A DNA stretch of 64,000 nt from Thermoanaerobaculia bacterium (GTDB lineage Bacteria; Acidobacteriota; Thermoanaerobaculia; Multivoradales; Multivoraceae): NCBI GenBank assembly GCA_965232105.1, contig OZ246956.1:1666499-1730498 (forward strand), given 5' to 3'. Each line of letters opens with the position of its first letter. Position 1 is the stretch's first letter. A program made the translations under genes and the position numbers. A model generated the notes under the pieces. That model was not told the origin of the DNA, made no database searches, and saw only the letters and a list, made by a program, of their open reading frames with translations. Below are positions 2 through 15,974 of this stretch, piece by piece.

Positions 2-151
2 AACAAGCCTCAGCGGCTCATGATCCCGGTCCCCGAAGACGAGGAGTACACCTGGCTGGCCGACCTGAACCGGGACGGCAAGCAGGATGTACTGATGCAC
101 CACGCGTCGACGGCGGCGCCTCATCGGCTGACCGTCCTGATGTCGCGGTAA
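2..151 (+). CDS. 3' end (C-terminal fragment) of a gene that starts upstream of the window. The translated tail ...EDEEYTWLADLNRDGKQDVLMHH...LTVLMSR* resembles an FG-GAP/VCBS-type DxNxDGxxD calcium-binding repeat
   Basis: Frame-2 translation is open from base 2 to a TAA stop at 149-151. The DLNRDGKQDV motif is the only family-level clue. The upstream part lies outside the window. Confidence 0.3.
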   Translation, partial: NKPQRLMIPVPEDEEYTWLADLNRDGKQDVLMHHASTAAPHRLTVLMSR

Positions 152-255
152 GAGGACTGGGTGTGCCCGGAAAGACCGTGAGCGCCCGGAAGACTGGGTG
201 CGCCGGCCTTCTGGCCGGCATGCGGCGCGAAGCGCCGGCCTCGGGCGTTCTGTAG

Positions 256-5129: not shown

Positions 5130-5399
5130 GTGCGAGTCGAGTTCGACGAAGCGAAGCGTGCCGCCACCTTGAAGGCCCGGGGACTGGACTTGGCCCGCGC
5201 CGGCGAGGTGTTCGATGGGGCGACACTGACCACACAGGATGACCGCAGGGACTACGGAGAGGACCGGTACATCACCGTCGGCTTTCTCGACGGAGCGATG
5301 GTTGTTCTTGTCTGGACTCCCCGTGGCGGCGGGTACCGGATCATCAGCATGAGGAAGGCCAATGAACGAGAACGACGACTCTACGGCTCGAGACTTTGA
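5130..5399 (+). CDS. brnT: BrnT toxin (type II toxin-antitoxin ribonuclease)
   Basis: 89 aa. The N-terminus EFDEAKRAATLKARGLDLARAGEVFDG and the ITVGF...RIISMRKANERE region match the BrnT family. It overlaps the downstream CopG-like gene as is typical for brnTA. Confidence 0.8.
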   Translation: MRVEFDEAKRAATLKARGLDLARAGEVFDGATLTTQDDRRDYGEDRYITVGFLDGAMVVLVWTPRGGGYRIISMRKANERERRLYGSRL

Positions 5400-5619
5400 C
5401 CCCGACACCGCGCCGGACCTCTCTCGGGACGGTTGGCCGGAGAAGTTCGCCAGGGCGCCCGTGCGGCGCGGCCGGCCGCCGCTCGCGAAGCCGAAGGTGT
5501 CGACCACGATTCGGCTGTCTCAGGACGTAATCGACCACTTTCGTGCCGGCGGCCGCGGCTGGCAGACGCGGATCAACGAGGCGCTGCGCGACTGGATCAG
5601 GCGGCACGACGCCGCCTGA
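5362..5619 (+). CDS. brnA: BrnA antitoxin (CopG/RHH-like)
   Basis: 85 aa. The C-terminal GRPPLAKPKVSTTIRLSQDVIDHFRAGGRGWQTRINEALRDWI matches the BrnA family. It overlaps the 3' end of brnT by 38 nt. Confidence 0.75.
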   Translation: MNENDDSTARDFDPDTAPDLSRDGWPEKFARAPVRRGRPPLAKPKVSTTIRLSQDVIDHFRAGGRGWQTRINEALRDWIRRHDAA

Positions 5620-5989: not shown

Positions 5990-7591
5990 ATGGCGAGCAA
6001 GCAATCGGACAGTGGCGCAACGACCGGCTACGAGGCCGAACTGTGGGCGATGGCCGACGCGCTTCGCGGCTCGATGGATGCGGCCGAGTACAAGCACGTC
6101 GTGCTCGGCCTCATCTTCCTGAAGTACATCTCGGACGCCTTCGAGGAGCGCCACGCGACGGTGCTGGCCGAGTGGGGGGAGGACGCCGCGGAGGACCGCG
6201 ATGAGTACATCGCGGAGAACATCTTCTGGGTGCCGCCGGAGGCCCGCTGGGCGCATCTGAAGGCTCGGGCGCGGCAGCCGACAATCGGCCAGACGGTTGA
6301 CGAGGCCATGACCGCGATCGAGCGTGACAACCCGGCACTGAAGGACGTGCTGCCAAAGGACTACGCGCGTCCAGGCCTGGACAAGCAGCGCCTCGGCCAG
6401 CTCATCGACATGGTCGGCAACATCCGCGTCGGTGACGCTGAAGCCCGGTCCCGCGACGTGCTGGGGCGCGTCTACGAGTACTTCCTCTCCGAGTTCGCGA
6501 GCGCCGAGGGCAAGAAGGGAGGCGAGTTCTACACGCCCCGCTGCGTCGTCGAGTTGCTCGTGGAGATGCTGGAGCCGTACCGGGGCCGAGTGTACGACCC
6601 GTGCTGCGGCTCGTCCGGCATGTTCGTGCAGTCCATAGAGTTCATCGGTGCCCATGCGACGGGCAACGGCAACGGCGGAGCGACGCCCGCCGGCGCCGCG
6701 GCCGACCTCTCGATCTACGGTCAGGAATCGAACTACACGACCTGGCGGCTGGCCCGGATGAACCTTGCGATCCGCGGCATCAGCGGCCGGATCGAACAGG
6801 GCGACACGTTCCACAATGACCGCCATGCGGATCTGAGGGCCGACTACATCCTGGCCAACCCGCCCTTCAACGTCTCGGACTGGGGCGGCGAGCGGCTGGC
6901 GGAGGACAAGCGCTGGGAGTACGGCGGGCCGCCGAAACGCAACGCGAATTTCGCCTGGGTGCAGCACATGGTGCATCATCTGGCCCCGGGCGGCAGGGCA
7001 GGCTTCGTGCTCGCGAACGGTTCGATGTCGTCGGCGCAATCGGGCGAGGGGAAGATCCGCGCGAACCTGGTGGAGGCGAATCTCGTCGACTGCATGGTGG
7101 CTCTTCCCGGCCAGCTCTTCTACTCGACCCAGATACCGGCCTGTCTCTGGTTCCTGGCCCGCGACCGGGAGGACGGTGGCGGTCACGATCGCACGCATGA
7201 GATTCTGTTCATGGACGCCCGCGAACTCGGCCGCATGGTCGACCGCACTCACCGCGAACTGACGGCCGAGGACATCGGCCGGATCGCCGCCACCTACCAT
7301 GCCTGGCGCGGCGGCGACGGCGTGGCGCCCTACGAAGACGAGCCTGGCTTTTGCAAGAGCGCGACCCTGGAGGAGGTCCGCCGGCACGACCATGTGCTCA
7401 CGCCGGGTCGCTACGTCGGCTTCAAACCGCCCGAGGAGGATACTGAACCCTTTGAGGACAAGATGAAGCGACTCGCCGCCGAATGGCGAGATCAGCAGGT
7501 CGAAGCGAGCAGGCTGGACGCGGCGATCAAGGAGAATCTGCGGACGCTGGGATTCGGAAGGCCGCGGGACCAGAGGAGCGGCTTGCCGTGA
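5990..7591 (+). CDS. hsdM: Type I restriction-modification system N6-adenine DNA methyltransferase subunit HsdM
   Basis: The N-terminal HsdM_N region ([33 protein letters not shown]). AdoMet-binding motifs ([12 protein letters not shown]). Catalytic NPPFN. Confidence 0.9.
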
Positions 7592-8043
7592 CGCTGAGCC
7601 AGCAGGAGTTCGACTCGATTCTGGCCGACGACACGAAGCGAATCGTCGGCGACGTAGCGTGGCAGGACGATGAGGACCATTCTCCGGCACGGGAATTCAG
7701 GGCCGAGGTGTCGTCCGAAGCCGGTTACCCGCTGTTCGTCAATGGTCGCTGCAACCCCAAGGCTGGCACTCTGTCGTACACGCTGGTTCATCGACGTGTC
7801 GGTCGCATCTACGGACTGGATCTCGGCGCCGAGCACCACAATCCGGATTGCAACCTCGTTGGGGAGAAGCACAAGCACCGGTGGACGGAGGCCTGTCGCG
7901 ACAAGCAGGCGTACGTTCCTGGGGACATCACTGCTCCGTGGACTGAACCGAGAGACGTCTGGAGCCAGTTCTGCGCCGAGTCGAAGATCGTCCATGATGG
8001 AAGCATGGGTGCGTTGAACGCCCAGAAGGAACTGGCGCTATGA
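7588..8043 (+). CDS. Hypothetical protein (151 aa) translationally coupled to hsdM. It contains a possible compressed HNH-like segment, [16 protein letters not shown]
   Basis: The GTG start at 7588 overlaps the hsdM TGA stop (GTGA). Protein-like composition. No recognised family. G+C is visibly lower than the neighbouring core genes. Confidence 0.5.
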
Positions 8044-8819
8044 ACTCCGAGATGCTGTGTTCGTCGATTGCAAGGTCACTGCCGCCCCTCTTTAGCTGTT
8101 CGCCCGCTCCAGAGGAGGGAGTAAGGGTGCGGACGCCTCTCATGTATCCCGACGGCGGCGTGGTGGATGTGTTCGTGCTCCAGCGCAACGGAGGCTTGAC
8201 GATCACCGACTTCGGCGAGAGCCTCGGTTGGTTGCGGATGCAGTCGGTGAGCAGGCGCAGATCGCCTAAGCAGAACAGGATGATCGGGGACGTGTGCCAG
8301 ACGCTGGGGCTCAAGCTGGAGCGAGGTCAACTCGTCCTCCGGGTCGCAGCGGACGCTGCGGTCGGGGACTCTGTTCTGCGAATCGCCCAGGGTGCGGTGC
8401 GAGTCTCGGACCTGTGGTTCACTCTGAGAACCAGGGCCGTCCAGAGTGCATCTGACGAAGTTCATGAGTGGCTGACGGAGCGACGCATTGCCCATGAGCG
8501 CGGTGTGAACCGAACCGGCAGATCGGGGCGGCAATGGACGATCGACTTCGAGACCCGCACAGACGATCGAACAGCGCTCGTCTTCCTGCTCAGTACAGGT
8601 TCCCGCGGCGCCGCTCGACGGATCACCGAGCATGTTGTCGCCGGATGCGTCGATCTCAGCCACCTGCAGGAGCCTCGCCAGCGGGTGAGATTGGTTTCCT
8701 TGTTCGACGACACACAGGATCTATGGCGCAAGGAGGACTTCCAACTTGTGGAGCAACAGTCCGAAGTCGCTCTTTGGTCGGCCCCTGAACGATTCGAGCA
8801 GCTTCTTCTGGCCGCGTGA
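8040..8819 (+). CDS. Hypothetical protein (259 aa) coupled to the upstream unknown gene (ATGA overlap)
   Basis: The ATG at 8040 overlaps the upstream TGA stop. No recognised motif. A DUF1828-like family is a faint recollection only. Lower G+C than the core. Confidence 0.5.
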   Translation: MNSEMLCSSIARSLPPLFSCSPAPEEGVRVRTPLMYPDGGVVDVFVLQRNGGLTITDFGESLGWLRMQSVSRRRSPKQNRMIGDVCQTLGLKLERGQLVLRVAADAAVGDSVLRIAQGAVRVSDLWFTLRTRAVQSASDEVHEWLTERRIAHERGVNRTGRSGRQWTIDFETRTDDRTALVFLLSTGSRGAARRITEHVVAGCVDLSHLQEPRQRVRLVSLFDDTQDLWRKEDFQLVEQQSEVALWSAPERFEQLLLAA

Positions 8820-8904
8820 AGTCGGCGCATCGGCGAAGCACGTAGGGGCAAGTACGGTTGGGGTCACCCAGAGCGCGGAGATCGTGGCCGCACATGCGTT
8901 GACG

Positions 8905-9327
8905 ATGGGCATCGACACGACGTTTCTCAGGAGCCGTCTTGACCGGCTGGCAGCCTGCCTCCATGCTCTCGGTGATGCCGAAGACGCGACTGCCCACCGC
9001 CTCACCGGCGAAGTGTGCGCCGATTACTTCGAAGTGGCGCTCGAGCAAAGCGGGAAGCTGCTCAGGAAGTGCCTGCGCCCATGGTTCCCGAGCAATCGAC
9101 GGGCGGACAGCCTGACCTTCAGGGACATCTTCCGGCACGCGGCGAAGCACGGTCTGATCGATATCGAGGTCGGAGAGCGCTGGCTCGGCTACAGGGACGC
9201 TGTGGACGGGTTCGTTGAGCGGGAGAAGGGCGGCCGGTTCGACATGGCGGCGATGGAGCGGTTGCAGGCCTTTCTCGCCGACGCCAGGGCGCTGATCGCG
9301 GTCATCGAGCAGGCGGCCGATGACTGA
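8905..9327 (+). CDS. HEPN-domain protein of the HI0074 'nucleotidyltransferase substrate-binding' family (toxin-like partner of a minimal nucleotidyltransferase)
   Basis: An Rx4H HEPN motif (FRHAAKHG) near the C-terminus. About 140 aa measured from the ATG at 8905 (the ORF track extends to 8746). Its stop overlaps the start of the downstream nucleotidyltransferase gene (ATGA). Confidence 0.65.
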   Translation: MGIDTTFLRSRLDRLAACLHALGDAEDATAHRLTGEVCADYFEVALEQSGKLLRKCLRPWFPSNRRADSLTFRDIFRHAAKHGLIDIEVGERWLGYRDAVDGFVEREKGGRFDMAAMERLQAFLADARALIAVIEQAADD

Positions 9328-11035
9328 ACGCCTCCACCTGAGGCCGCGCCACCGGGCGCGGCTCGAAGCCCTGCTACGCGAACATCTCCCCGCCGTGGAG
9401 GTCTGGGCCTACGGCAGCCGCGTGAACGGCCAAAGCCACGACGGCAGCGACCTCGACCTCGTGCTGCGAGGCTCAGGATTAGAGGAGATCGACATCTGCG
9501 CCCTCGGTGACTTCACTCAGGCGCTTCACGATTCGACCATCCCGTTCCTGGTCGAGGCTCGCGACTGGGCGCGCTTGCCGGAGCGGTTCCATCGGGAGAT
9601 CGAGCGGGAGTATGTGGTCTTGACAGGAGGCGATCGGTCGTTCTGCGGTGACGACGGGGTGCGGCAGGGCGACTGCTTCGCACGAGCCGATTGCCAGGCA
9701 ACCAGCTCCGACTCTTCAGATGCTGCTGCCGGCTGGCAAGAAGTCGGATTAGGCGATGTAGTCCGCCTCGTGTCTGGAGGTACACCGTCCAAGGGGGAAC
9801 CGACGTACTGGGGCGGCGAAGTTCCCTGGGTCTCTGCGAGAGACATGAAGCAGTTTCTGCTCCGCGATACGAGCCATCACGTCACTGCCGAGGGGCTTGC
9901 CAACGGCACTAGGCAGGTTCCGGCCGGCACGCTCCTGCTCCTTGTCAGGGGTATGAGGTTACTGAAGGAATTGCCAGTCTGCGTGACAGAACGACCGATG
10001 GCCTTCAACCAGGACATCAAGGCTCTTCTGCCCAAGGGACGTATCGATCCGAAGTTCCTGCCGTATCTTGTCGCAGGCAACAAACGGCGTCTACTGAATC
10101 TCGTAGACCTCGCCGGTCATGGCACGGGTCGGATCAACAGTGACGAACTGCGCGCCCTCGATGTTCGGTTGCCGCCGCTGTGCGAACAACGAGCCATCGC
10201 TTACATCCTCGGCACGCTTGACGACAAGATCGAGCTGAACCACCGGATGACCGCGACGCTGGAGGCGATGGCGCGGGCGCTGTTCATGTCCTGGTTCGTC
10301 GATTTCGACCCGGTGCGGGCCAAGATGGAATGTCGAAACACGGGCCTATGGGAAGGAACCGCGAAGCTGTTTCCCGACCGATTGGTGGACTCGTTCTTGT
10401 TAGGGAGTATCCCGGCTGGATGGGAGGTGTCTGAGATCGGCAAAGAGGTGAGGGCTGTAGGAGGTTCAACTCCGAGTACCAAAGAACCGTCTTACTGGTA
10501 TGGAGGCCAGAATTGCTGGGCTACACCTAAAGACCTTTCAAAGTTGGTCTCTCCGGTCTTGATGGGGACGGGCCGCAAGATCACAGGCGCAGGGCTGGCG
10601 AGAGTCGGTTCTGGGACGCTTCCCGCGGGCACGGTCCTCATGTCTTCTCGCGCTCCAATCGGATACCTAGCCATTGCCGAGACACCGACGGCCGTCAATC
10701 AAGGCCTCATTGCAATGAGATGCGAGGGCCGTCTGTCCAACCTATACGTACTTCATTGGTGCGGCCAGAACCTCGGTTACATCAGGAACATTGCCGGTGG
10801 GTCTACATTTGCGGAAATCAGCAAGAAGGCGTTCCGGCCGATACCAGTACTCGTTCCTTCGGGAGTAGTTCTCGGTGAGTACGAACGTTTCGGCCGCCCC
10901 TTGTACGATCGGCTAGTCGTGAACACGAAGGAGGCGGTGGCCTTGAGCGTTCTTCGTGACGCGCTGCTCCCAAGGCTGGTCTCGGGAGAGATCCGCGTGC
11001 GCGATGCCGAGAGGGCCCTGGAAGCCGCTACATGA
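9320..11035 (+). CDS. hsdS: In-frame fusion of a minimal nucleotidyltransferase (MNT, partner of HI0074/HEPN) to the type I restriction-modification specificity subunit HsdS
   Basis: Residues 1 to about 110 carry the minimal-NT motif YGSRVNGQSHDGSDLDLVL. From about residue 130 the sequence is a canonical HsdS with two target-recognition domains. It has GWQEVGLGDVVRLVSGGTPSK at the TRD1 start, the central conserved LPPLCEQRAIAYILGTLDDKIELNHRM...ALFMSWFVDFDP region, and the C-terminal repeat LLPRLVSGEIRV. There is no stop codon between the MNT and HsdS parts. An internal in-frame GTG at 9659 could act as an alternative start. Confidence 0.8.
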   Translation: MTERLHLRPRHRARLEALLREHLPAVEVWAYGSRVNGQSHDGSDLDLVLRGSGLEEIDICALGDFTQALHDSTIPFLVEARDWARLPERFHREIEREYVVLTGGDRSFCGDDGVRQGDCFARADCQATSSDSSDAAAGWQEVGLGDVVRLVSGGTPSKGEPTYWGGEVPWVSARDMKQFLLRDTSHHVTAEGLANGTRQVPAGTLLLLVRGMRLLKELPVCVTERPMAFNQDIKALLPKGRIDPKFLPYLVAGNKRRLLNLVDLAGHGTGRINSDELRALDVRLPPLCEQRAIAYILGTLDDKIELNHRMTATLEAMARALFMSWFVDFDPVRAKMECRNTGLWEGTAKLFPDRLVDSFLLGSIPAGWEVSEIGKEVRAVGGSTPSTKEPSYWYGGQNCWATPKDLSKLVSPVLMGTGRKITGAGLARVGSGTLPAGTVLMSSRAPIGYLAIAETPTAVNQGLIAMRCEGRLSNLYVLHWCGQNLGYIRNIAGGSTFAEISKKAFRPIPVLVPSGVVLGEYERFGRPLYDRLVVNTKEAVALSVLRDALLPRLVSGEIRVRDAERALEAAT

Positions 11036-11286
11036 CGCCGGCATCCGCGACGTTCTCCGAGGCGAAGGTCGAAGAGGCAGCTCCTTTTGACTCCGGGGGG
11101 TCCGTTGGTGGTCGGGCGGCGGCTCCGTGTATTGGTTCTCGCGTTCACGCCGTCTGTGTGCGCTCCAAGGTACCGCGTCCCCGAGACCGGCTGAGCGAGG
11201 GCGACCTGAAGTTGGTCGCCGCGTGAGTCCGGAGCCGCTACCGTCTGGTAGCGTAGCCGGGCGATGCCGAAGCGCGAAGGGCCAGC

Positions 11287-11646
11287 GTGAACTGGGAACC
11301 GCTAACGGCGCTAAGCGCCGCGATCACCGCCTTGTTCGCGGCAGCATCGGCAGTAGTCGCTTGGCTGATGTGGCGGCAGGCTCGCCAGAAGGACCAGCAT
11401 CGACTCGCCGCTCGATCTGCGGCTCTTCGCCTTCTCGTAGTGCAGTCCGACCTCGTCCGCATACGAGAGATTCTTGCGAAGGAAGATGTGGACCACTCTC
11501 ATATCGACGCACTACTAGAAGGTAACATGATCGGAACAGGACAAACGCTAATCGAGGTTCAGACATTCTTGCCGAACCTTGTATCCGAACTGCGCGGCAA
11601 GATGATGGAGGAATCAAGGCATGGCCGAAACAACCAGGCCACGTAG
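11287..11646 (+). CDS. Small membrane-anchored hypothetical protein (119 aa, one N-terminal TM helix) in the gap between hsdS and hsdR
   Basis: The hydrophobic N-terminus LTALSAAITALFAAASAVVAWLMW, followed by a charged soluble tail. G+C is visibly lower than the surrounding genes. Its 3' end overlaps the start of the next unknown gene. Confidence 0.45.
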   Translation: MNWEPLTALSAAITALFAAASAVVAWLMWRQARQKDQHRLAARSAALRLLVVQSDLVRIREILAKEDVDHSHIDALLEGNMIGTGQTLIEVQTFLPNLVSELRGKMMEESRHGRNNQAT

Positions 11647-12112
11647 AATCCGTGGTCATGTAGCTGCAATACTCAACACTCGTCAGTTGGCACTCAACAT
11701 TGGGTCGTTGAGACATGTGGAAGTCGGAATGCGGTTTGACGTCGTCCATGCGAGAAACCACGAACTCAAGGACCCCATCACTGGCGAGTCTCTTGGCAAG
11801 TTGGACCTGCCTAAGAAACGCGTGAAGATCTACGAAGTCGCCGAGAGATATTCGATCGCCAACACACTGGCTCGAGAAGTCAACGTTGGAGGTAGCGGAA
11901 TAGACTTGGGCTTTGCGAGGAGCTTTGCACCTCCGAAGTGGGTTACCCGATACGATACTCTCAAGAAGGACGACTCTTCCTTTGAAGAAATTGACGAGTC
12001 GGAGAGTGTTGTACAAGTCGGCGATCCCGTTGTGGAAGTTGTCGCGTCGGATGGGGCCGAGTCGATAAAGCCGATCAGCGAAGTGGCAGCAGGAGAAGCT
12101 CACGTCTCGTAG
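11621..12112 (+). CDS. Hypothetical protein (163 aa), second gene of the low-GC cassette between hsdS and hsdR
   Basis: Globular-protein-like composition (e.g. KIYEVAERYSIANTLAREVNVGGSGIDLGFARSFAPPKW). The opposite-strand ORF at 11324..12103 is Cys/Ser/Arg-rich and looks non-coding. No recognised domain. Confidence 0.5.
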   Translation: MAETTRPRRIRGHVAAILNTRQLALNIGSLRHVEVGMRFDVVHARNHELKDPITGESLGKLDLPKKRVKIYEVAERYSIANTLAREVNVGGSGIDLGFARSFAPPKWVTRYDTLKKDDSSFEEIDESESVVQVGDPVVEVVASDGAESIKPISEVAAGEAHVS

Positions 12113-12204
12113 TGTGGCGGTAGGTGACCTTCCGAGAGACCCCCCGAAGTCCTTTCAAGAGAAATTCCCGTCACCCTTGGCGAGAGAGCGTTGGCACGCG
12201 TGAC

Positions 12205-15357
<3,153 letters not shown>

Positions 15358-15453: not shown

Positions 15454-15903
15454 CTACCGGCCGTGCCGTTCCTCCGCCGTCTGCTTGAGCGCCCTGCCGA
15501 CGGTCGCGAAGCCGCGGTGCATGGCGCCGCCAAACAGGAGCCGGGCCATCGGCGCCAGTGGCCCTTCCAGGGTGTCGGTGTTGAAGTAGGTGCAACTCGT
15601 CTCGCTTCGCTTCTCGAGTCGCTGTACACGCAGCGCTTTCACGAGTCCGAGGGCGACGTTCGTGCTCCAGGCCAGACGGGTCGGCGGTTCGACGATCGCG
15701 ATGCGTTCGGTCTGCTTCCGGTTGTAGCGGTCCAGCTTGACGTCGAAGTGGATGGGGGAGCCCACGCGGACATCGGTCTTCGTGTAGGTCCGGGCGAAGG
15801 GATTCCACTCGTGGTAGCGGTCGAGATCGACGAGGAGGTCCCAGGCCACCTCGATCGGAGCGTCGATCTCTACCGGTTCCGAATCGATGGCGCGCTTGAA
15901 CAT
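15454..15903 (-). CDS. SRPBCC-family protein (polyketide cyclase/dehydrase-like START fold)
   Basis: From the ATG (rc) at 15903, MFKRAIDSEPVEIDAPIEVAWDLLVDLDRYHEWNPF... matches the Polyketide_cyc2/SRPBCC pattern. The longer ORF-track extension upstream runs through a repeat element. Confidence 0.6.
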   Translation of the reverse strand: MFKRAIDSEPVEIDAPIEVAWDLLVDLDRYHEWNPFARTYTKTDVRVGSPIHFDVKLDRYNRKQTERIAIVEPPTRLAWSTNVALGLVKALRVQRLEKRSETSCTYFNTDTLEGPLAPMARLLFGGAMHRGFATVGRALKQTAEERHGR

Positions 15904-15974
15904 CCGGGGGCCTCCTGCGCTGACGGCATGGAGCCGGCCGCCGAAGAGGTGCCGGCCTAGCGGCCGGCGCGTCT

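Follow-up and report, generated by a model that had tools for sequence, protein, structure and literature searches.

A mobile, overlapping gene pair for a membrane protein and a predicted β-barrel protein lies between hsdS and hsdR of a type I restriction operon

The stretch of DNA analysed here, 64,000 nt of the genome of a Thermoanaerobaculia bacterium (contig OZ246956.1, positions 1,666,499 to 1,730,498; hereafter the window), carries a type I restriction–modification (RM) operon in which two short open reading frames (ORFs), orf119 and orf163, lie between the genes for the specificity and restriction subunits. The operon reads BrnT/BrnA, hsdM, PDC-M24A and PDC-M24B, a HEPN-like ORF, MNT-HsdS, the cassette of orf119 and orf163, and hsdR (Table 1). 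From the letters alone, the original prediction had picked out an AT-rich stretch at 11.28–12.12 kb with two overlapping ORFs of 119 and 163 aa, placed in the slot that PrrC occupies between hsdS and hsdR. The coordinates of both ORFs were confirmed, and the position of the cassette is upheld by the Pfam matches of its flanking genes.

Table 1. Features of the cassette and its surroundings. Coordinates are window positions, except for the three regions of orf163, which are given in residues.
Feature	Coordinates	Strand	Description
hsdS (context)	9320–11035	+	Pfam Methylase_S, NTP_transf_2/Polbeta; weak NCBIfam MntA_antitoxin
Left copy of 93-nt direct repeat	10986–11078	+	Functional hsdS 3′ end (stop 11033–11035) and relic hsdR start (ATG 11032)
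Relic (pseudogene) hsdR 5′ end left by the insertion	11032–11226	+	Begins MTPASATFSEAKVEE; BLASTP match to the real hsdR
TCTGGTAGCGTA motif	11244–11255	+	Conserved in the window, L006, L001 and L002; ~30–40 nt 5′ of the orf119 start
orf119	11287–11646	+	GTG start, 119 aa
orf163	11621–12112	+	ATG start, 163 aa
orf163, barrel core	~11–88 and last strand 136–140		
orf163, insertion	~89–135		Conserved
orf163, tail	143–163		Disordered, acidic
Right copy of direct repeat	12159–12251	+	Relic hsdS 3′ end, then probable true hsdR start (ATG 12205)
hsdR (context)	12205–15357	+	Directly 3′ of the cassette; Pfam HSDR_N, SWI2_SNF2, T1R_D3-like, T1RH-like_C

The G+C content (GC) of positions 11287–12112 is 0.546, compared with a window mean of 0.670 (sd 0.032, z = −3.8), in agreement with the predicted AT-richness. 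This is the minimum of the entire 64 kb, where the only other dip coincides with the variable portion of hsdS. Of all 826-nt windows, just 0.27% are equally low in GC, and every one of these overlaps the cassette. Codon-position GC within the cassette is coding-like, with position 2 lowest (~0.41). The two genes overlap by 26 nt in the window and by 4–26 nt in relatives, which suggests translational coupling, and a GGAGGA Shine–Dalgarno motif lies 8 nt 5′ of the orf163 ATG. The start codon of orf119 is supported by the sequence M[TSI]WE[PT] in relatives.

Close homologues of orf163 share 72–80% identity and come from three other assemblies, while those of orf119, including P0007 and P0008, share 66–67%. 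The ratio of non-synonymous to synonymous substitution rates (dN/dS, Nei–Gojobori) ranges from 0.11 to 0.17 for orf163 and from 0.13 to 0.55 for orf119; both cassette genes are under purifying selection. That the two frames are open by chance, within a foreign spacer of higher AT content, and are not expressed genes is effectively refuted. What could be said for it is the GTG start of orf119, the absence of promoter-consensus matches (a scan for promoters and terminators around the cassette, using the sigma-70 consensus, returned nothing above chance) and the presence of a long antisense ORF (11324–12103, minus strand, 259 aa) that spans nearly the whole cassette. This antisense frame is open in the window only, the longest antisense open stretch in eleven relatives being 62–190 aa, and we therefore regard it as a shadow ORF; as a real gene it was rejected, since it is not conserved in any relative. 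Chance frames would, moreover, have to be reconciled with the low dN/dS of orf163, the Shine–Dalgarno motif in front of it, the confidently predicted barrel fold of its core and hundreds of homologues that are always paired and always in the same order. Rfam families were found nowhere in the window.

orf119 has one hydrophobic helix at approximately residues 6–28 (Kyte–Doolittle maximum 2.03), and because a basic stretch follows this transmembrane (TM) helix, its C-terminus is predicted to be cytoplasmic. orf163 possesses neither a hydrophobic helix (Kyte–Doolittle maximum 0.70) nor a hydrophobic N-terminus and, lacking a signal peptide, is expected to be cytoplasmic. Hydropathy thus agrees with the earlier description of a single N-terminal TM helix in the first protein and a soluble second one.

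An AlphaFold2 model of orf163 built from a 73-sequence alignment (pLDDT 74.5; barrel core >90, insertion 51–71) indicates that the protein is built on a six-stranded β-barrel of the FlgT-C/HAS type. Foldseek searches with this model placed FlgT at the top in the PDB, and FlgT_C-annotated proteins as well as Gordonia phage proteins in BFVD. At the sequence level, the window protein itself scores E 0.08 against Pfam FlgT_C (PF16538; 13.8 bits, cut-off 27), whereas 60 of 100 orf163 relatives match this family at E ≤ 0.01 (best 3e-9), and the orf163 family profile matches the FlgT-like domains of TsaP at E 9e-4. Scans of both ORFs against Pfam, NCBIfam, PADLOC and PHROGs gave sub-threshold matches only (FlgT_C as above; phrog_27728, E 5.7e-4; PDC-M05B, E 0.017), with orf163 lacking any PADLOC match and orf119 showing PDC-M05B as its only one. 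The PDC-M05B lead was dropped, ten further partner or barrel sequences from other loci giving 0 PADLOC matches.

Beyond the six-stranded barrel that orf163 is predicted to have in common with the FlgT C-domain, the two differ in many respects. FlgT proper, a component of the flagellar H-ring, is a periplasmic protein of ~350–380 aa with three domains, a signal peptide and a flagellar gene context; orf163, with its 163 aa, lacks a signal peptide, the remaining FlgT domains and flagellar neighbours. Likewise, and unlike the HerA-type HAS-barrel ATPases and the crown barrels of F1, orf163 stands alone without an FtsK/HerA P-loop ATPase domain, and to the barrel known from FlgT, TsaP and HerA it adds a family-specific insertion of ~45 residues and an acidic tail. 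The protein is charge-bipolar, with a pI of 10.3 for residues 1–88 and of 4.2 for residues 89–163. No catalytic motif is evident in orf163, and a role as adaptor, sensor or regulator would be the natural one, since the barrel elsewhere mediates ring assembly and docking.

A profile search of 1.84 billion representatives retrieved 1846 members of the orf163 family at E ≤ 1e-3 and 577 at E ≤ 1e-10, superseding the six clusters obtained with a word-indexed search. In several of these (P0022, P0069, P0037, P0093, P0109 and P0139), the barrel is combined with unrelated C-terminal domains, which suggests a reusable sensor or adaptor domain. The domain added in P0022 and P0069 carries an FD(V/L)..RG....(E/Q)VK motif that resembles those of PD-(D/E)xK nucleases; neither a PDB sequence search nor pairwise BLASTP confirmed a nuclease identity. 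If confirmed, this domain would fit a shared sensor with swappable effectors.

The usual partner of the barrel protein is a ~155-aa protein with two TM helices and a helical C-terminal domain, recognisable by the motifs GRQSA...PHARSAFRRL...ADDALEDWRD; in almost all family members its gene precedes and overlaps that of the barrel protein. Profile comparison identifies orf119 as a short, one-TM form of this family: hhalign aligned the short- and long-form profiles from the last TM helix to the C-terminus with 93% probability (E 2.8e-7). Among 80 metagenome loci, 75 had enough sequence to place the partner, and in all 75 it lay directly upstream of the barrel gene; in P0030, membrane partner and barrel form a natural single-chain fusion. 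Two Dehalococcoidia loci (L022, 9382–9993; L023, 9347–9970) have a different, ~205-aa membrane protein as upstream partner, whose C-terminal half, by eye, resembles another small barrel-type domain instead of the usual helical one, suggesting partner replacement in this divergent branch.

How the cassette came to lie between hsdS and hsdR is recorded in its flanks by a 93-nt direct repeat, the copies of which are identical at 67 of 93 positions (mean 44, maximum 49 in 100 shuffles of the region). In the left copy, the stop codon of hsdS shares the sequence ACATGA with the ATG of a 64-codon relic starting MTPASATFSEAKVEE; the right copy contains a relic hsdS end, the same ATGA and then the real HsdR N-terminus. 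The relic (11032–11223) aligns to the product of 12205–12504 in BLASTP with 14 of 34 residues identical (E 8e-5). Since remnants of both the hsdR start and the hsdS end are thus contained in the repeat, we read from the sequence that the ancestral locus had a translationally coupled junction with overlapping hsdS stop and hsdR start, into which ~1.1 kb was inserted. The hsdR ORF opens at a GTG at 12124, and its alignment to the homologue in L001 begins at ORF residue 27; together with the repeat and the relic copy, this alignment indicates that translation of hsdR probably starts at the ATG at 12205 and not at 12124. Searches of L006, L001 and L002 did not detect the repeat, and for L006 alignment suggests no more than a degraded trace. 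The last ~50 nt before orf119, including TCTGGTAGCGTA, are conserved in relatives and even in L002, where the pair lies outside the hsdS–hsdR slot, so that this stretch is part of the mobile unit; the motif itself may be a promoter or operator.

L006 represents the same chromosomal site in a relative and shows the locus to be a mosaic. From hsdM to mid-hsdS the two sequences are 94.8% identical; window positions 10392–11244, comprising the second target-recognition half of hsdS and the relic region, have no nucleotide similarity to L006; and from just 5′ of the cassette, cassette and hsdR are 85% identical. Such a pattern is compatible with a reshuffling of specificity domains and cassette alleles by recombination. 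At synonymous sites, the divergence of the window from L006 amounts to 0.8–1.2 for the cassette, compared with 0.13 for hsdM and 0.35 for hsdR. Going by these values, the cassette allele was either exchanged by recombination or evolves faster, without simple co-divergence with the hsd genes. L006 additionally has a SIR2 and HerA-type pair with further ORFs inserted just after hsdR (11046–13883), which makes this site a hotspot where defence genes accumulate; downstream, window positions 15470–15909 match L006 16765–17209 at 78.7%.

The pair was found at 15 genome loci over ~8 phyla as well as at the 80 metagenome loci, its carriers including a 6.6-kb mobilisable plasmid, a Deinococcus plasmid, an archaeal plasmid and a temperate phage. 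Cassette GC was below that of the host locus in every genome locus tested. A Pfam scan detected no transposase or integrase domains in the cassette. The insertion scar, the low GC and the spread over many phyla, plasmids and phage all bear out the original prediction of a horizontally acquired accessory cassette in a type I operon. In total, what lies between hsdS and hsdR is a mobile, obligately paired and overlapping module that was inserted into a complete type I operon and has been kept by selection.

Several types of RM system accommodate the module. Besides the window, the hsdS–hsdR slot is occupied in L001 and L006/L007; the pair adjoins hsdS in L021, and in the Thermoanaerobaculia island L002 it is found with type I remnants, PDC-M24, HEPN and DUF499. 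Type ISP enzymes directly precede it in four loci of Chloroflexota (L010, L012, L013 and L016), and type IIG enzymes lie upstream of it in L004 and L097; in L015 (Poribacteria) and L107 it is found between res/ParA-like/HEPN and mod of a type III-like operon. In a crude neighbour-joining tree of the family, RM-linked members fall in at least six separate places, which argues that the embedding arose repeatedly. Elsewhere, the pair sits beside an insertion sequence (IS) and SIR2 (Bordetella), beside an FRG-domain gene (Simiduia), beside PIN_12 and MazEF or, in the lysogeny module of Lacticaseibacillus phage P7.1, between cI, ImmA and an HSDR_N-type nuclease on one side and the integrase on the other. 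The module is autonomous and often solitary, its embedding in RM operons being recurrent, not obligatory.

The closest genome matches (L009–L023) are long-read metagenome-assembled genomes of Poribacteria, Chloroflexota, Dehalococcoidia, Caldilineaceae, Thermoanaerobaculia, Latescibacterota, Binatia and Alphaproteobacteria. Such a mix is typical of marine sponge microbiomes and hints at a cassette subfamily circulating horizontally within one habitat.

Accessory cassettes in RM operons are a known kind, and guilt-by-embedding has been validated for other embedded genes (HEC/PDC, Payne et al. 2024, bioRxiv 10.1101/2024.01.29.577857; TgvAB, PMC11411939), more than half of embedded genes remaining unexplained (bioRxiv 10.1101/2024.01.29.577857). 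With respect to the operational definition of an embedded candidate (Payne et al. 2024), the present pair is nested in a defence operon, belongs to neither the mobilome nor the housekeeping genes and has homologues elsewhere. Like the HEC/PDC candidates and TgvAB of Vibrio cholerae VPI-2, it is nested in a type I RM operon and also occurs non-embedded; unlike them, it belongs to different protein families and has no GmrSD, ATPase or nuclease. Lambda RexAB and KwaAB of Kiwa likewise combine a small polytopic or bitopic membrane protein with a soluble cytoplasmic partner and are carried by prophages or defence islands, but sequence similarity to them was not detected (PADLOC) and sizes, TM number, gene order and folds differ, which makes the analogy one of inferred function. 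The literature yielded nothing specific on a named system with an FlgT-like or HAS-barrel protein and a TM partner; in what we found there, this pair is undescribed.

The function we infer, and to which we give about an even chance of being right, is that of an autonomous mobile conflict module, abortive infection (Abi)- or toxin–antitoxin (TA)-like, that pairs an effector in the membrane with a barrel protein for sensing or regulation. In such a module, orf119 and orf163 would form a complex at the cytoplasmic face of the membrane, as suggested by their invariant co-occurrence, the natural fusion and the predicted cytoplasmic location of the partner C-domain. Sensing or regulation would fall to the barrel protein, and the effector would be the membrane protein; set off, for example, by an infecting phage or by loss of the element, it would compromise membrane integrity or stop growth. 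Placement inside several types of restriction operon would provide co-expression and co-transfer with a first-line defence and would not reflect a specific biochemical partnership with HsdR. The conflict or defence role raised by the original prediction accordingly stays plausible by guilt-by-embedding, whereas a PrrC-like reading as a dedicated HsdR guard is weakened.

A number of observations weigh against a conflict module. Neither protein contains a recognised catalytic or pore-forming motif, and none of the 5027 PADLOC models (v2) is matched by either of them or by the full-length proteins of other loci. The barrel is of a generic fold, and the orf163 model is only moderate (pLDDT 74.5), particularly in the insertion. 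Many loci have housekeeping neighbours only, RM-like neighbours being present in just ~5 of the ~39 loci with usable flanks (panel tblastn). Metagenome neighbours are heterogeneous and mostly metabolic (121 Pfam families among 116 neighbours), integrase, transposase, GmrSD, HicB and TaqI_C being the few exceptions. Lastly, a family-pattern scan of IMG/VR found no close relatives.

Some of the same genomic company would suit a pure addiction module of TA type, in which the membrane protein is the toxin and the barrel the antidote, and which stabilises islands, plasmids and prophages by post-segregational killing with no direct anti-phage role. The genes are small, overlapping and mobile; on the Deinococcus plasmid they adjoin MazEF, HigBA and ParAB, together with type I genes, in a stability region; on the 6.6-kb mobilisable plasmid they are among only seven genes, one of which encodes a CAP12-type TIR protein; and their frequent lone insertion among housekeeping genes resembles that of TA loci. 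TA pairs of a membrane toxin and a small soluble protein exist in CptA/YgfX–CptB and SpoIISA–SpoIISB, which share with the present pair an N-terminal TM anchor with cytoplasmic C-domain and a small soluble protein in an overlapping two-gene unit, though no homology was detected. We nevertheless consider a purely addictive function unlikely: none of the DNA-binding or autoregulatory domains of type II antitoxins (helix-turn-helix, ribbon-helix-helix, AbrB) was detected, the gene order would be unusual in that the putative toxin comes first, and defence explains at least equally well why the pair is repeatedly embedded in RM systems of four types and in the lysogeny module of a prophage. TA and Abi roles can coexist and are not mutually exclusive.

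Loci with housekeeping neighbours alone, of which there are many, could also indicate a cellular function outside conflict, for instance as an envelope or membrane-associated scaffold, in which case presence in the operon would be due to hitch-hiking or neutral insertion. The nearest fold relatives (FlgT, TsaP and MreC) are indeed components of envelope machines. orf163, however, is predicted to be cytoplasmic and differs from all three in having no signal peptide. In addition, the patchy occurrence across phyla with variable neighbours, the presence on plasmids and in a prophage, the atypical GC in every host tested and an insertion in the middle of an RM operon kept under purifying selection are hard to reconcile with such a role, which we judge distinctly improbable.

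The location of the cassette between hsdS (9320–11035) and hsdR (12124/12205) is precisely that of PrrC, and it brings up a dedicated accessory of the restriction enzyme: the pair would bind the ATP-dependent restriction complex, for instance tethering it to the membrane or monitoring it, and would fire, or modulate restriction, when a phage anti-restriction protein blocks the enzyme. PrrC, an anticodon nuclease like RloC, is encoded in EcoprrI, a type Ic locus; its one polypeptide of ~400 aa joins an N-terminal NTPase domain of the ABC type to a tRNA (anticodon) nuclease domain at the C-terminus. The cassette resembles it as an accessory riding inside a type I operon at the hsdS–hsdR position and foreign to the core RM genes. 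The filling of the same slot in L001 and L006, the operon linkage of related cassettes to type ISP, IIG and III-like enzymes, the use of the barrel fold as a docking or ring domain in HerA and F1-type motors, and the acidic tail of orf163 would all be in keeping with such an accessory. On the other hand, the cassette consists of two small proteins, a membrane anchor and a β-barrel, and most of its relatives are not RM-linked. Walker A (GxxxxGK[ST]) is absent from both ORFs, neither matched an ATPase family in Pfam or PrrC in PADLOC, and no nuclease family was matched by either (119 or 163 aa), leaving the pair without the PrrC-like ATPase or nuclease. Nor do the four RM types share a common subunit that could be recognised; divergence of the cassette greatly exceeds that of the hsd genes on either side, which speaks against tight co-evolution; and the scar identifies it as a secondary insertion into a complete system. 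A PrrC-like accessory is thus very unlikely.

A more elaborate reading, which we rate as speculative and improbable, is a new and widespread guard-type immune module. Here, the charge-bipolar barrel would form a ring on the cytoplasmic domain of the anchor and monitor, at the membrane, ATP-dependent restriction motors (type I, ISP and III) or incoming DNA. When phage anti-restriction factors disable the enzyme, the barrel would turn the anchor, or a nuclease-like domain in fused relatives, into a cell-arresting effector. The sensor would then be shared between interchangeable effectors and have been co-opted repeatedly by different RM types.

The remaining genes of the operon include further candidates for a role in conflict. 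Immediately upstream of hsdM lies a BrnT/BrnA type II TA pair (5130–5619). A second embedded cassette (7483–8819), between hsdM and hsdS, consists of PDC-M24A (DUF6978, E 5.6e-67) and PDC-M24B (DUF1828, E 8.4e-88), candidate defence genes of the guilt-by-embedding set. The PDC-M24A ORF as listed overlaps the hsdM 3′ end by ~109 nt, its true start probably being near 7591. hsdS itself reads as a single frame of 571 aa that begins with an MntA-like nucleotidyltransferase domain (residues 1–106), and a HEPN-like (NTase_sub_bind) ORF precedes it at 8746–9327; this looks like a HEPN/MNT TA pair whose MNT half is apparently fused to the specificity subunit. L006 has the same MNT–HsdS fusion, as does L001, where an IS truncates it.

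Should the pair prove to be a defence or addiction module, it would represent an unannotated family of at least 1800 sequence clusters present in many phyla, on plasmids and in a temperate phage, and represented neither in Pfam (as a pair) nor in NCBIfam or PADLOC. Embedded candidates of this sort are numerous, and the importance of the pair depends on experiment. Its independent embedding in four RM types offers several natural contexts in which synergy could be tested, and the duplicated hsdS/hsdR junction constitutes an unusually clean record of an insertion event, documenting how restriction operons recruit second-line modules.

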